Part shown: positions 1,743 through 10,866 of the stretch, piece by piece | Layout of the letters: each line of letters starts with the position of its first letter | How positions within the stretch are numbered: the stretch's first letter is position 1 | Source of the DNA: Chlamydiota bacterium | Lineage (GTDB): Bacteria; Chlamydiota; Chlamydiia; Chlamydiales; SM23-39 | Direction: 5' to 3' | Assembly: GCA_038534095.1 (NCBI GenBank) | Contig: JBCAXK010000048.1 | Location: forward strand, 1 to 10,866 | DNA length: 10,866 nucleotides | Notes under the pieces: generated by a model | Databases searched by the model: none | What the model saw: only the letters and a program-made list of their open reading frames with translations | Told to the model about the DNA's origin: nothing | Translations under genes and position numbers: made by a program

Positions 1743-3746
1743 ATGAGTATTTTAAAATCCATTGATCCGCCTAATAGGTGGTCTGATCCCTTGTATTATC
1801 TTCCAGGCATTAGCGGAATTGTTGCCATCATTGATACGGTACAAGATGTTGCTTTGAGATTCTTTGCGTGCTGCGTTCCTGTTACAGAGGCTGCTTTGGA
1901 GGTAGATGGATCTCCTATAGAACAATCGGCGCAAGGCAAGAATAATCCGTCTCTACGAAATACGATAGAAAAGCGCGCTCTTGCTTTATTGCCTGGGATT
2001 GGTAACCTTCTGATTTATCTCTATTATACTCCATGTAGCTTACATCCTCGAAACCAGCCATCTACTGCTCTAGAAATCGATAGGCTAGAACGTGGGGAGG
2101 TGCGAAGTCAGGAAGAGGCATTCGCAGATCCTAAAAAGGGGCAACTCCTCAAACGCACCTCATTGAGGAGAGCGCCTTCTCCTCTGCCGTTTTGTGCACT
2201 TAAGAAAAATCAACATGCTCAAAAAGATCCGGTTCTAGATCATAAAACAAGTCTGATATCCAGTAAAAATCTGTGTTCACCTGCGCCAATGACTCCTGCT
2301 ATTGGGAAGATGCAAAAAGCATGGATAGGGACGCAAGATCAGGGAAAAAAGATCCAAAAGAGCGCGCCGTCTAAGATTGCTCAGCAAGATCCGCTTCCAT
2401 CTTTCCCCTCTCATCAAAAAAAGGGCGTTCTTCACCCCCTTACTAGGGAACAGCAAATGGGGAAGATTCGGCCAAAAAGGAGATCCTCTTGTTTAAAAAT
2501 TATGGCGCAGTTTGATGCCAATGACAGAGCTTTTCTTCAGAAGACTATGGGGAAAATAGCTAACTCCAAAGTGATTAAAAATCAGCCTCTCTTACAATCT
2601 GATTCGGAAAAGCCTAACCCAAAAATAGACCCGATCGAGCAAGATTTTGGCCCTCTTTCGCAAGGCAATGAGGCAAGTGTACCAGTAACATCCAGGGTCA
2701 CTACGTTCATCAGAAATCCTGGTCACCAAACGTGCTGGGCTCTTACTGCTCTACACATAGGCATGTTTACAGACCCCTACCTCGCCCAGGAAATAAAGAC
2801 GTTTCTTGAACAAGCCCATGAACAATCACGAGATCATTCGCGGATAGCTGCTCTCGCGAAAATCATTACTAAGTATGAACAGCACGTGGGGGGATCGATC
2901 GATATTGCAGAAGAACTACAAACTGTGTTTGCGGACCTTGTGCAAATTTATGATCAAAACGGCGTATCAGAAACGCGGAAAGATCAAATCCTCACAACGC
3001 AGCTATCGACAGCAGAAATGCTACAGGGGCTGTTTTCTCTCTTTGAGAGAAATCACATCAATATAGAACACCTAAAAACAAGTCATACCTATCTCATGAA
3101 CGACGGCGTGGCAACCAATCCTAGTGATTTTACGGTCATCCCGATCAACTTGATCAAACAAAAGCATCAACCACCCGAAGCGCCTTTATCGATAGAAACC
3201 TTGATCGATGAGCAGCTTGCTTTTACAACGCTGCCAGATACGCTCCATTTTAGAATGGTGAGAGAATACCCAGAAGATCAACACTCTGTGGAAGTGCAGC
3301 CTCGACCAGAAAAGAGCTACTCACTCACTGCTCTAAAGAGAACAAGTGAGGGAGACAAAGGATCAAAAAAGAGCAAAGAGCCGCGCGTATTTGTGAAAAA
3401 GTATGTTCCCAATCCCATCTTTTTCCCATCAAATGACGGAGCGATCGGCATCTCTTCGAAGGAGATCTCTAAAAGAGCTACTGACGGGCAAATGGAAGTT
3501 GCTTGCTATCATAAGCCTAAATCTTATGAGCTACAAGCCTTTGCGATACACGGCAATATTCATGGTGATGCTCAAACAACCATAGGACCTTTGACCTCTT
3601 GCCACTACGTTTCTTGCGTAAAAAAAGGCTCGCAGTGGTTTTTCATCAATGATGATGTCGCTACGCCCATCTCAGATGAAGAAGCAATGAGACGATTCAG
3701 AAGATGCGCAACAGCTACGTTCAAAAAAGTAAAAAACGCATTGTAA
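1743..3746 (+). CDS. Putative secreted effector: N-terminal hydrophobic anchor plus USP-family (peptidase C19-like) deubiquitinase domain
   Basis: Cys box FIRNPGHQTCW (C331, nt 2733); QQDAxEFL-like box QLSTAEML; LPDTLHFRMVR (LPxxLxIxLKR-like); His box YELQAFAIHG...CHYVSCVKKGSQWFFINDDV (H621, N636, D637). The N-terminus has two hydrophobic segments, YYLPGISGIVAII and RALALLPGIGNLLIYLYY. Confidence 0.85.
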   Translation: MSILKSIDPPNRWSDPLYYLPGISGIVAIIDTVQDVALRFFACCVPVTEAALEVDGSPIEQSAQGKNNPSLRNTIEKRALALLPGIGNLLIYLYYTPCSLHPRNQPSTALEIDRLERGEVRSQEEAFADPKKGQLLKRTSLRRAPSPLPFCALKKNQHAQKDPVLDHKTSLISSKNLCSPAPMTPAIGKMQKAWIGTQDQGKKIQKSAPSKIAQQDPLPSFPSHQKKGVLHPLTREQQMGKIRPKRRSSCLKIMAQFDANDRAFLQKTMGKIANSKVIKNQPLLQSDSEKPNPKIDPIEQDFGPLSQGNEASVPVTSRVTTFIRNPGHQTCWALTALHIGMFTDPYLAQEIKTFLEQAHEQSRDHSRIAALAKIITKYEQHVGGSIDIAEELQTVFADLVQIYDQNGVSETRKDQILTTQLSTAEMLQGLFSLFERNHINIEHLKTSHTYLMNDGVATNPSDFTVIPINLIKQKHQPPEAPLSIETLIDEQLAFTTLPDTLHFRMVREYPEDQHSVEVQPRPEKSYSLTALKRTSEGDKGSKKSKEPRVFVKKYVPNPIFFPSNDGAIGISSKEISKRATDGQMEVACYHKPKSYELQAFAIHGNIHGDAQTTIGPLTSCHYVSCVKKGSQWFFINDDVATPISDEEAMRRFRRCATATFKKVKNAL

Positions 3747-4674: not shown

Positions 4675-5006
4675 AAGAACGGGCTAAAAATTTTTTAAAA
4701 AGCATACTAGCTCTGGCACCAGCATTTTTCAAGAAAATATTGCATGCAAAATGGGTTATCAAGATCGAGACCTCTTTTTTTGCTGACTAAAAAAGCCCCT
4801 CGATGGATAAAAGGAAAACAACAAGCAAGTATAGGGGGGTAAAATCGCAGGAGTTTCAGGCAATTTAGGGATGGCGAGCTGTGCTACTTTTAGGAAGATG
4901 GCATAGGGGCGCTTTATTGCAACCGTTTTGAAGAGTATAGAGGAGCTTGCAAGATCGCCAAGAAAGAGCCTTTATGGAAATTCCAGCTCTTCATAAAATG
5001 GATTTG

Positions 5007-6125
5007 ATGAACGAAAATATTGAATCCCTATCTATCTGTCTTCCAAAAATAGGAGAAAGCATCACCGAAGGTACGGTGGTTGCTTGGCTCAAGAAAGTGG
5101 GAGATCTTGTTGAAAAAGATGAGCCTTTAGTAGAAATTGCGACCGATAAAATCAATACAGAAATCCCGTCGCCAGCTAAGGGTTTTTTAGAGGAGATCAT
5201 CGCTCCCGTAAACGGGCGGGTGGAAGTGGGTAAACCTCTTTGTCTCCTTCGACAAGAAGCGTTATTGCAAGAAGAAACGCCCTTCTTTAGCCCGGCTGTG
5301 CTGCGTATAGCGCAAGAACATCAGATCAGTATGAGCGACTTAGAATCGATTCCTAGAAAGGGTCAGAGGCTGAGTAAAAAGGATCTAGAGCAGCACTTAA
5401 GCGCTTATCAAGAGGAAAAAATTGTGCAAGAGGGGGATAAAAAAATTCCCATGACCCCCCTTCGTAAAACGATTGCCGAGAATATGGTCCGCTCATTTTA
5501 CGAAGCTCCCCAAGCATCTTTAGTGATCGAAGTGGATGTAACACCAATTTTACAAATCGTAGAGAGAGAAAAAGAAGCATTTTTTCAAGAACATCAGACC
5601 AAACTCACCATCACCCCGTTTTTTGCCAAAGCGCTGATTGCAGCCGTAAAGACGTATCCGCTGATGAACGCTTCTGTGGAAGGGGATACGGTGATCATGA
5701 AAGAATCTGTGAACCTTGGGATCGCCGTTAGTGTGGAAGAGGGAATCTTTGTGCCGATCATCAAACAGGCAAGTGCTCTATCTTTTGTTGCCCTATCTAG
5801 AGAAATTGCTTTACTCGTAAAAAAAACAAGGCAGCGTGCATTGTCTGCAGATGAAACAGAAAATGGTTCGATCACATTGACGAATTTTGGGATGGGAGAG
5901 GTCCAGATTGGGATTCCTATCCTCCGTTATAAAGAGGCTGCGATTCTAGGAATTGGAGCCATAGAAAAAAAAGTCGCTGTTTTAGAGAACAATTCTTTTG
6001 GCATTCGATCGAAAGTCCATGTATCTTTAACTTTTGATCACCGGATAATTGATGGTATGTATGGGTGTAAGTTTTTGCAAGAAATCAAACAACAACTCGG
6101 AAGCGCAGATAGGTGGCTTTCGTGA
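5007..6125 (+). CDS. sucB: Dihydrolipoamide acyltransferase, E2 of a 2-oxoacid dehydrogenase (chlamydial sucB_2 type, likely branched-chain E2)
   Basis: Lipoyl domain LPKIGESITEG...EIATDKINTEIPSP, subunit-binding FSPAVLRIA, and catalytic TFDHRIIDG. ATG 5007 was chosen as the start nearest the lipoyl domain; ATG 4974 or 4998 are also possible. Substrate specificity is inferred from position next to kdsD. Confidence 0.9.
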   Translation: MNENIESLSICLPKIGESITEGTVVAWLKKVGDLVEKDEPLVEIATDKINTEIPSPAKGFLEEIIAPVNGRVEVGKPLCLLRQEALLQEETPFFSPAVLRIAQEHQISMSDLESIPRKGQRLSKKDLEQHLSAYQEEKIVQEGDKKIPMTPLRKTIAENMVRSFYEAPQASLVIEVDVTPILQIVEREKEAFFQEHQTKLTITPFFAKALIAAVKTYPLMNASVEGDTVIMKESVNLGIAVSVEEGIFVPIIKQASALSFVALSREIALLVKKTRQRALSADETENGSITLTNFGMGEVQIGIPILRYKEAAILGIGAIEKKVAVLENNSFGIRSKVHVSLTFDHRIIDGMYGCKFLQEIKQQLGSADRWLS

Positions 6126-6126
6126 G

Positions 6127-7080
6127 ATGATTGGGACGCTGTTACAACACCAAAAGCAGTACATCGATCAATTTTTTGATCAGATCGATCTGGATCAAGC
6201 AGCAGAAATTTTAGCAAAGTTGTACAACACAAAAGGAACGCTTGTTTTTACAGGCGTAGGGAAAAGTGGAATCATTGCAAACAAACTCGCAATGACCTTT
6301 CTATCTACTGGTACAAAAGCGCTTTATTTGCCCTCAACCGATGCTATGCACGGCGACTTGGGCCTTTTGGATCAAGATGACGTATTGATCTTGCTGAGCA
6401 AAAGCGGTAATACCGAAGAGCTCATTCGTCTGTTGCCATTTGCTAAGAATAAGAAAGTATGGACGATTGCTCTTGTGTCGAATCGGAGCGGAAAACTGTA
6501 TGAGCAGTGCGATCTTTCTGCCTATCTACCCGTAGAGAAAGAGCTGTGCCCTTTTGATTTGGCCCCAACTACTTCTACAGAGGTGCAGCTCATGTATGGG
6601 CACCTCTTAGCTGTTGCGATGATGAAAAAAAAGAAGTTCACTCGGGGCGATTTTGCAAAAAACCATCCCGCGGGCTCGATTGGGAAAAAGCTTTCACTGA
6701 CTGTAGAAGATGTGATGCGCAAAGGGGAAGAGCTCCCTTTGTGCTCTTTTGGAGAAAAGTTGCTTCATCTTCTATGTCGCTTATCTGAGAAAAAATCGGG
6801 TTGCCTGTTCATCACCAACGAACGTAGAGAGCTTTTGGGCATTTTTACCGATGGAGATCTGCGAAGAACCGTCGAGATGTTTGGTCATCAAGCTCTTGAA
6901 AAGCCGATTGAAGAGGTAATGACTACATCGCCCCGCTTCACTACCAAAGCGGTGCTCGCGGTAAGCGCTTTGCAGAAAATGGAGGAAAAAGTCGATGGCG
7001 GGATTACTGTGATGCCTGTTCTTGAAGAGGGGAGGCTCATCGGCATGGTCCGGCTTCACGACATTTTACAAGCTCTTTGA
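6127..7080 (+). CDS. kdsD: Arabinose-5-phosphate isomerase, KdsD/KpsF/GutQ family (SIS plus CBS domains)
   Basis: Motifs TGVGKSG, AMHGDLG, SKSGNTEE, ELCPFDLAPTTST, NHPAGSIG and GIFTDGDLRR. ATG 6127 lies 1 nt after the E2 stop, suggesting translational coupling; the ORF-track start at 6049 overlaps E2. Confidence 0.95.
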   Translation: MIGTLLQHQKQYIDQFFDQIDLDQAAEILAKLYNTKGTLVFTGVGKSGIIANKLAMTFLSTGTKALYLPSTDAMHGDLGLLDQDDVLILLSKSGNTEELIRLLPFAKNKKVWTIALVSNRSGKLYEQCDLSAYLPVEKELCPFDLAPTTSTEVQLMYGHLLAVAMMKKKKFTRGDFAKNHPAGSIGKKLSLTVEDVMRKGEELPLCSFGEKLLHLLCRLSEKKSGCLFITNERRELLGIFTDGDLRRTVEMFGHQALEKPIEEVMTTSPRFTTKAVLAVSALQKMEEKVDGGITVMPVLEEGRLIGMVRLHDILQAL

Positions 7081-9077: not shown

Positions 9078-10178
9078 TTAAAAATCAAACATCACTCGGA
9101 GAGAGATACCACTTAAATTGAGATCTCCTCGAGATACGGTATCGTTGACAAACGTTCCAGCGGGATTGTTGCTAAACAGTTTTCGTATCTGGTTTTGGTC
9201 ATACCAAGTATGGAATTCCCATAAAGCTTGTAGCCTTACGTAGTTTTGCATATCGTTGAAATGCGTTCCCCAAGCAACTCCAACTTGTAGTTCCAAGTTT
9301 GAGCTATTTCGGTAAAAGCTGCTATCAAAGGCGTAGCTTGCTGTTTCAAACGGAAGATTCTCTGAAACATCGAACTTTGAATAGAGTAGGGAAGTGCTTG
9401 AGTTGGCAAGCAATTGAAATCCCGATCCCATTGACCATTCAGAGTTGACGCCCATCCGGGTTCCAACGCCCCAAAAATTGTTACGATCTACGCGAAATTT
9501 TGTATCGAAACTTCCAGCATATCTTGCGACATAGTTTTGATCGATCCAGGCCGCTCTAAGTCCAAAAAATGGGGATAAAACAACGTACCGGCTCACATGA
9601 AAAGGCTTGCCTAAAGCGATGTCAAGCACATTCAATTTCATTTCCCACCTTTGCGAAGCGTCAGTATCATCAAGGGTAGGGGCTTGCGTAGGAATCCACT
9701 GAGGGATAATCAAACCAGTTCTTTCGGTTGTTCCGTTCACATCTTGATTGGTGTGAAACCACATCCATTGTACATCAAGGTTCCACGCATCACGACTTAA
9801 GACGCATCCAAGGCCAATGCGCGCTCCATAATCCCAATCATAACTATTGTGATCAGATGAAAAGCTCAGCACCTTTCCCCCTGAAAGCGATGATCCGATA
9901 ACGTTGGAAGCGTTGGTGTCAACAATTCCGTACACTAGTCCATCTTGCATGGGTTGCATGGCAAGAAAATCTCCATAAAAATAAAAATCGTTAGGGCAAG
10001 CTAGATTCATATCTTTTGGATAAAGAAAAGCAAAGGGGCCAGGTTTAGGCTCTTCACAACAAATGTTTTTGGGAGCAGGATCGCAGGGTCCTTGCGGCAT
10101 TGCGTAGGCACAGGTGGTGGCTAGCAAGGACAATGCACAGGATGCGATCGCGTATCTCCACGACAAATTTTTAGTCAT
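9078..10178 (-). CDS. MOMP-like / Lpg1974-family beta-barrel outer-membrane porin
   Basis: Signal peptide ending CAYA; motifs FYFYGDFL, WDYGARIGLG, DAWNL...W, LSPFFGLRAAWIDQ, FWGVGTRMG and GDLNLSG...FDF with terminal Phe. GGAGA lies 6 nt upstream of ATG 10178. Confidence 0.88.
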   Translation of the reverse strand: MTKNLSWRYAIASCALSLLATTCAYAMPQGPCDPAPKNICCEEPKPGPFAFLYPKDMNLACPNDFYFYGDFLAMQPMQDGLVYGIVDTNASNVIGSSLSGGKVLSFSSDHNSYDWDYGARIGLGCVLSRDAWNLDVQWMWFHTNQDVNGTTERTGLIIPQWIPTQAPTLDDTDASQRWEMKLNVLDIALGKPFHVSRYVVLSPFFGLRAAWIDQNYVARYAGSFDTKFRVDRNNFWGVGTRMGVNSEWSMGSGFQLLANSSTSLLYSKFDVSENLPFETASYAFDSSFYRNSSNLELQVGVAWGTHFNDMQNYVRLQALWEFHTWYDQNQIRKLFSNNPAGTFVNDTVSRGDLNLSGISLRVMFDF

Positions 10179-10486
10179 ATACAATCTCCGAGTTTACTTC
10201 AGTTAAATAGCTAGCTTTAGCCTTGTGTAAACAAGCAAAATATACGGTCACAAACCATATCGCTATTTCATCTCGACAATAAGTAGTTCAATTTTAAATT
10301 GGCAATAATTTTTTTTATGAAAGAGTTTGTTCCTGGAAAAAACAGCTAACAAGAGTAGCTTATGATAGAACAATGCGATATGAGCAAAGCGGCAAATCAG
10401 TGCGTACAAAAACGACACATTTTTCCGATAAATCGTCAAAAGAGTGCAGAGAAACAAACGCCCGTTTCTCCCTGCTTCCCCAGGGG

Positions 10487-10550
10487 AAAAGAGAAAAAAA
10501 GAAAAAAAATTAGCAGAGGTGTTGCAAGTAATTCAGATCTCTAGTAGATT
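10487..10550 (+). promoter_or_regulatory. Putative rRNA operon promoter with upstream A-tracts (UP-element-like)
   Basis: TTGCAA (10522-10527), 17-nt spacer, TAGATT (10545-10550); A-tracts at 10487-10509; about 185 nt upstream of the 16S gene. Confidence 0.65.
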
Positions 10551-10595
10551 GTTAGTATCTTTTAAACGCAAAGTGACTGCGAGACAAAAGGTAAA

Positions 10596-10628
10596 GACAA
10601 CGAAGATTGTCGGTCGATATTTAACAAT
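10596..10628 (+). promoter_or_regulatory. rRNA leader antitermination signals (boxB-like hairpin and boxA-like sequence)
   Basis: Hairpin GACAA-cgaaga-TTGTC (10596-10611) followed by CGATATTTAACAAT (10615-10628), resembling boxA TGCTCTTTAACAAT. Confidence 0.5.
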
Positions 10629-10643
10629 AGAATAAGAACGCTA

Positions 10644-10698
10644 TGCAAATCTTCTTCATGAAGATTTGTGCGGACAAGAAATTAACATTTCTTGTTTG
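10644..10698 (+). other. Two adjacent stem-loops in the pre-rRNA leader
   Basis: CAAATCTTC-ttcat-GAAGATTTG (10646-10668) and ACAAGAAAT-taac-ATTTCTTGT (10674-10695). Both extend by G-U pairs only as plus-strand RNA. Confidence 0.7.
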
Positions 10699-10778
10699 TC
10701 AACGTACAAAATAATAATATATAGATCAAATTCTCAGTAAAAAAATTTGATATATATATTATTATTTTGTACGTTGAC
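10698..10778. repeat. 35-bp inverted repeat (34/35 matches) with an 11-nt spacer, overlapping the 16S 5' end
   Basis: Left arm 10698-10732 GTCAACGTACAAAATAATAATATATAGATCAAATT; right arm 10744-10778 AATTTGATATATATATTATTATTTTGTACGTTGAC; spacer CTCAGTAAAAA. Confidence 0.97.
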
Positions 10779-10866
10779 GGCGTGGATGAGGCATGCAAGT
10801 CGTACGAAATAGTAGTAATGCTATTTAGTGGCGGAAGGGTTAGTAATACATGAATAATCTGCCTTT
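10735..10866 (+). rRNA. rrs: 16S ribosomal RNA, 5' fragment (runs off the window); first ~40 nt aberrant
   Basis: CGGCGTGGATGAGGCATGCAAGTCG...TTAGTGGCGGAAGGGTTAGTAATACAT..ATAATCTGCC is the chlamydial 16S 5' region, with an exact Chlamydiales signature at 10778-10794 and a V1 hairpin at 10807-10826. The start is estimated from AATTTGAT at 10744. Confidence 0.95.

Follow-up and report, generated by a model that had tools for sequence, protein, structure and literature searches.

A palindrome across the 16S rRNA start of a Chlamydiota genome assembly is very probably a fold-back chimera

The palindrome that spans the start of the 16S rRNA gene in this Chlamydiota assembly is very probably a laboratory or assembly chimera and not the organism's gene, a reading to which we assign a probability of roughly 0.88. 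The window analysed here (10,866 nucleotides, nt) is the entire contig C48 (JBCAXK010000048.1) of genome G000 (GCA_038534095.1), which comprises 1.62 Mb in 87 contigs and is 96.6% complete. At the native locus, a canonical chlamydial 16S start comes after an ordinary leader; the window differs from it by a single reverse-complement block put in place of native sequence. We favour an artefact because the normal gene is seen when this organism is sequenced in other runs; as contigs drop rare variants, this leaves room for a minority allele in vivo.

As it stands in the contig, the inverted repeat has 35-nt arms (10698-10732 and 10744-10778) with one mismatch (10724 versus 10752) and an 11-nt spacer, in agreement with the 35-bp palindrome across the 16S 5' end that the initial annotation had described. 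The span 10698-10778 is the longest short-range inverted repeat of the window. Chance origin was ruled out by folding, both for DNA (10698-10778, z = -12.9) and for RNA (10660-10866, z = -10.3), with none of 200 shuffles equal in either case. The Rfam family SSU_rRNA_bacteria (RF00177) matches positions 10741-10866 on the plus strand, where the match is ended by the contig end, and its alignment confidence is low across the right arm. Meanwhile, the canonical chlamydial 16S start motif sits on the minus strand. A functional 16S 5' end calls for the strands that helices 1 and 2 contribute to the central pseudoknot, which are essential for 30S function (helix definitions and essentiality from PMC8201178), and in the window these positions are replaced.

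Every difference between the window and the native locus is accounted for by a single reverse-complement copy. The window is native up to 10723, continues with a copy of the leader arm, the loop and the first 16S bases, and is native again from 10775-10779. A four-point fit gave five exact solutions with switch-point order 3-1-2-4, in which a copied block of 51-55 nt replaces 47-51 native bases. The native leader forms a quasi-palindrome with the 16S start, comprising an 8-bp inner stem and an outer pairing of 9/12; folded as DNA, the native sequence forms the inner stem and not the outer one. The contig lacks eighteen native 16S bases, among them strands of helices 1 and 2, and has a duplicate of the leader in their place.

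Both junctions lie at short natural stretches of complementarity. Upstream, the outer part of the left arm (10698-10723, plus strand) is genuine rRNA leader, identical in run X1 and collinear in the same-genus genome G001. The chimeric block (10724-10778, minus strand) then begins, as placed by all five fit solutions and by record 5 of run X2. Junction 1 falls at 10724 (plus strand), just after the prefix common to the window and X1, which ends at 10723; the base at 10724 is the last native base copied past the inner stem, and one mismatch is followed by eight pairs. The left half of that 8-bp stem between leader and 16S start occupies 10725-10732 (plus strand), as seen in the native DNA fold, and has a 7-nt equivalent in G001. 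Next comes the inverted 11-nt spacer (10733-10743, minus strand), identified by repeat search, run comparison and fit, which places the canonical 16S start on the wrong strand. In the right arm (10744-10778, plus strand), copied leader stands in place of helix 1 and the 5' strand of helix 2, according to Rfam, the fit and PMC8201178. Junction 2 (10775-10778, plus strand) is a 4-nt exact microhomology that closes the 9/12 outer quasi-palindrome, and the suffix common with X1 begins at 10775. The right arm presumably also displaces the 5' strand of helix 3, given where we take that helix to lie. Beyond it, the 16S 5' region (10779-10866, plus strand) is genuine, matching RF00177 without any difference from X1 until the contig ends 88 nt past the right arm.

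These boundaries refine several earlier claims. Divergence had been said to stop exactly at the end of the right arm, and it does end there, within the 4-nt microhomology. The canonical start had been placed on the minus strand at 10723-10737; the strand holds, and the block begins at 10724 instead, because X1 and X2 read GATCC at the 16S start and the T at 10723 thus belongs to the leader. That the minus-strand copy explains both the spacer and the single arm mismatch is borne out, the mismatch arising because junction 1 lies one base outside the natural 8-bp stem. The 9/12 outer complementarity of the proposed ancestral quasi-palindrome was also recovered, while the native sequence quoted after the start motif differs from that in the runs.

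Two of the six public runs listed, X1 and X2, hold the stretch, and both carry the canonical 16S start on the plus strand at contig level, which was the initial annotation's own test for a chimera. X1 covers 9900-10866 in a single contig of 10,911 nt at a depth of 20.5. Relative to the window over this span it shows 17 substitutions plus gaps, all inside 10724-10774 and together spelling the canonical start, and no listed difference elsewhere. X1 may be the source sample of the G000 genome and for that reason does not count as independent. X2 comes from another study and a slightly different strain (7 of 492 letters differ upstream), with no cover at 10428-10559. Its record 5 reads leader to 10697, then 10778 to 10724 on the minus strand, then canonical 16S, the same reading as X1. 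Runs X3 and X4 gave short matches only, from other organisms, and a search of metagenome contigs with the leader sequence returned no match. The palindromic form is absent from the 15 run records listed, which are contig-level data from which rare variants are dropped. Likewise, data beyond the assembly yielded no switched allele, the X1 and X2 contigs being canonical at a level where rare alleles are invisible. Separately, record 6 of X2 shows a second leader variant on window 10593-10674 that diverges after 10674, and two 16S variants occur at 10775-10866; these could come from another strain or species, or from an additional operon.

The window can be rebuilt as the overlap of two single fold-backs that share exactly 10724-10778 (55 nt). 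In fold-back A, the top strand turning at the 8-bp inner stem (junction 1) reproduces the window up to 10778; in fold-back B, the bottom strand turning at the 4-nt microhomology (junction 2) reproduces it from 10724. Native sequence plus these two fold-backs supply all 56-letter words of the window, with one word missing at 57 letters and 22 missing at 78 letters. As two single fold-backs suffice, stitching by an assembler is possible and no molecule with both junctions is needed. The template-switch mechanics proposed in the initial annotation are thus right, with an exact fit to order 3-1-2-4, and the double switch in one molecule is dispensable.

We suggest that fold-back molecules would arise during library preparation or amplification, as they may have at many other G000 contig ends. 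A de Bruijn assembler might then join two of them via the shared 55-nt word, a step that we favour slightly. A word length of 55 is a common assembler setting. The contig-end overlaps are 77 nt, which suggests that the last assembly round used longer words, and at that length two single fold-backs leave 22 words of the window without supply. Stitching would therefore need a join carried over from a shorter-word round, as assemblers may do. Alternatively to stitching, one molecule may have switched twice in vitro, which we hold tentatively as a possible route. The chimeric route may have survived because it avoids the greater part of the conserved 16S start, a stretch in which the true route can tangle with other chlamydiae in the sample. 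At least 56 letters are common with relatives' 16S starts in 5 of 42 relatives for the native reading and in 0 of 42 for the window reading, and the longest common stretch is at most 34 letters for the chimeric route versus up to 67 for the true one. Two points at the junctions count against a chimera: strand extension at junction 1 would have to start from a mismatched end, and no outer stem forms in the native DNA fold. We found no description in the literature of an assembler stitching two fold-backs, though one may still be published.

Known library and amplification chimeras resemble the proposed products in part. The PDSM chimeras (PMC10908179) likewise involve near-perfect inverted repeats of at least 8 bp with the intervening sequence reverse-complemented, but they are read-level artefacts of human capture libraries, whereas the present product is part of an assembled contig, with two junctions. 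Most chimeras from multiple displacement amplification (MDA) are inverted (PMC10945365), and they include inversions primed, as proposed here, at complementary stretches of 2-21 nt in nearby DNA (Lasken and Stockwell 2007, PMC1855051). However, typical MDA products have one junction and the window has two.

Similar structures occur at other contig ends of G000. Of its 14 exact inverted repeats of at least 20 nt, 13 lie within 200 nt of contig ends, a zone holding 2.2% of bases, and 9 reach the very end. By tile, such repeats occur in 15 of 174 end tiles versus 2 of 2987 internal tiles. The end frequency does not differ significantly from that at G001 contig starts (1 of 60; Fisher p = 0.078, with C83 and C84 each entering the count once per end). 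Assemblies are broken by genuine long repeats as well, and the repeat at the end of C9 sits at a multi-copy element, so end enrichment alone proves little. We compared five contig ends with G001, of which C2, C6 and C44 had a homologue and C12 and C70 did not. In all three ends with a homologue, the arm or inversion was missing from G001. At C6 and C44, the gene is collinear with G001 up to a terminal arm that G001 lacks. At the C2 end, part of a UvrD-helicase/PD-(D/E)XK gene, which we take to be RecB-like, lies inverted between 27-nt arms that match perfectly, with a second jump after it, whereas the sequence in G001 runs on without a break; scanned by itself against Pfam, the inverted piece matched no family. 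This arrangement repeats the arm, inverted spacer, arm layout of the 16S site in an unrelated gene. One mismatch followed by at least eight pairs just inside the arms was seen in 4 of 11 events examined, the 16S site included.

Further observations concern these and other ends. The inversion at C2 (81570-81772 of the contig; 1271-1473 of locus L060) affects the nuclease region, and after it comes a direct copy, 60 nt long, of DNA from upstream; this end is probably a second chimera of the same kind as the 16S site. Fold-back arms of 33-74 nt lie at or near the ends of C6, C12, C30, C44, C67, C69 and C70, and a fold-back also occurs at C84. C73 is one whole-contig palindrome with arms of 1580 nt. 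The fold-backs at C6, C12, C30, C44, C67, C69, C70, C73 and C84 are likely artefacts.

The best-surviving rival to a chimera is a real inter-strand template switch in replication (order 3-1-2-4), carried by a cell lineage of the sampled population in a dead or silent rRNA copy that was assembled by chance. Switches of this order leave the spacer inverted between the arms of an inverted repeat (Loytynoja and Goldman 2017, PMC5453318), and yeast REG2 offers an example of arm conversion accompanied by inversion of the spacer (PMC8604942). The geometry here is exact, its perfect arms and inverted spacer from one reverse-complement copy being identical in outcome to the published four-point switch. 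One event would cover all differences, and rare alleles go unseen in contigs. Nevertheless, we consider the rival unlikely. The events of PMC5453318 were verified in reads as heritable alleles, whereas here both runs holding the organism are unswitched and none is switched. Template switching also maintains rRNA hairpins (Monttinen and Loytynoja 2022, PMC8794818), likewise perfecting a stem in an rRNA gene, but there the structure is retained and switches that break it seldom reach fixation, while the change in the window destroys the 16S start and is absent from other runs. The change also removes the pseudoknot strands, essential per PMC8201178, and the same signature appears at C2 in an unrelated gene.

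The rRNA gene count also speaks against this rival. G000 yielded a single 16S start, a single 23S end and a single 5S gene, which suggests one operon, though rRNA repeats often collapse in assemblies. A 16S family search of the genome itself gave no match even though cmscan detects the truncated start in the window; as the search misses a start that cmscan finds, this null has no bearing on rRNA copy number. More doubtful still is the further proposal that the quasi-palindrome of leader and 16S start is an in-vivo template-switch hot spot, with a chlamydial subpopulation carrying a 16S gene whose central pseudoknot is destroyed.

Relatives bear on a second rival, in which this 16S is genuine, works and is specific to the lineage, its 5' end having been remodelled or carrying a palindromic insert that can be removed. 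In G001, the left arm is plain leader, followed by a short stem and loop and then the canonical 16S start. The family search matched 53 of 102 genomes and returned 30 loci; 40 of 43 distinct 16S starts were canonical, the exceptions being the window and loci L005 and L015, and the longest exact repeat was at most 9 nt in all but the window. Wider scans added at least 119 and at least 107 loci, from which duplicates and three loci with too little upstream DNA were dropped. Among the matches listed, 116 of 117 and 99 of 99 distinct chlamydial-type starts were canonical (215 of 216 together, although the two sets may overlap each other), and the longest exact repeat was 11 nt versus 26 nt in the window. 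The chlamydial start motif also occurs in named Chlamydiota records. Although Rfam still aligns the region at low confidence, a functional variant is very improbable: X1 (the same organism), X2 (a near strain) and G001 are all canonical, so a second operon of this form would be needed, and none of the 216 other starts among the matches listed has a repeat of 12 nt or more. An intervening sequence or conserved variant was likewise ruled out by the canonical X1 and X2 and by the other chlamydial starts.

Of the two other exceptions, L005 (G034:C23) is a 16S copy of chlamydial type in which the first conserved motif is missing and no long repeat is present, while the other copy of that genome (L013) is canonical; L005 may be a truncated copy or a misassembly. 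L015 (G036:C324) is a non-chlamydial-type 16S in a chlamydial genome bin and is probably contamination.

Last, a reversible, phase-variable inversion that turns the rRNA operon on and off is scarcely credible despite the inverted spacer between repeats, given that 18 native 16S bases are gone with a leader duplicate in their place, so that flipping the "flippable segment" of the initial annotation back could not restore the gene, that a scan of 9 window proteins revealed no recombinase (the contig stops 88 nt downstream of the right arm), and that no run showed two spacer orientations between perfect arms, which contradicts it at contig level.

The native stem from which junction 1 of the proposed chimera was seeded is weakly kept, reaching at least 7 nt in 6 of 41 starts scored (window included; 7 nt in G001). 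In pre-16S rRNA of E. coli, part of the leader folds in competition with helix 1 of the 16S (PMC8201178), and this 8-bp stem may be a structure of that kind.

The genes flanking the rRNA site are unremarkable and encode LpxK, a 2-oxoacid dehydrogenase E2, an SIS-CBS protein, a CitMHS-type transporter and an outer-membrane protein, with Pfam matches in 7 of the 9 window proteins scanned. Positions 1-332, in an open frame at 3-512, hold a tandem repeat with a 93-nt unit, present in about 3.5 copies that are 93-97% alike; relatives of this repeat lie at the end of contig C74, and the X1 contig also appears to start within it. A 667-aa protein (1743-3746) has a C-terminal ubiquitin hydrolase domain (UCH, PF00443) and a low-complexity N-terminal half, and from this domain content looks like a host-directed deubiquitinase effector. 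The E2 gene (4947-6125) and the longest SIS-CBS frame (6049-7080) overlap by 77 nt, and the true SIS-CBS start probably lies further downstream than 6049. In the leader, 10515-10562 is nearly identical in G001 and contains a -35/-10-like pair (10522-10527 and 10545-10550, spacing 17 nt) that is probably the rRNA promoter, albeit below the threshold of a consensus promoter scan, which found no excess of sites (4 versus 2.5 +/- 1.4).

The initial annotation had left the origin open between in vivo, amplification and assembly; canonical runs and fold-backs elsewhere favour a library or assembly chimera. As biology, the palindrome is very probably without significance, and its value is a lesson in quality: a fold-back chimera can mimic a textbook template-switch mutation to the base in a 96.6%-complete reference genome. 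The chimera presumably also removes part of the usual 16S forward-primer site. Perfect palindromes within a few hundred bases of G000 contig ends should be distrusted, namely those at C2, C6, C12, C30, C44, C48, C67, C69, C70, C73 and C84. If the in-vivo reading were true, the stem between leader and 16S start would be mutationally costly to a group that has few rRNA operons.
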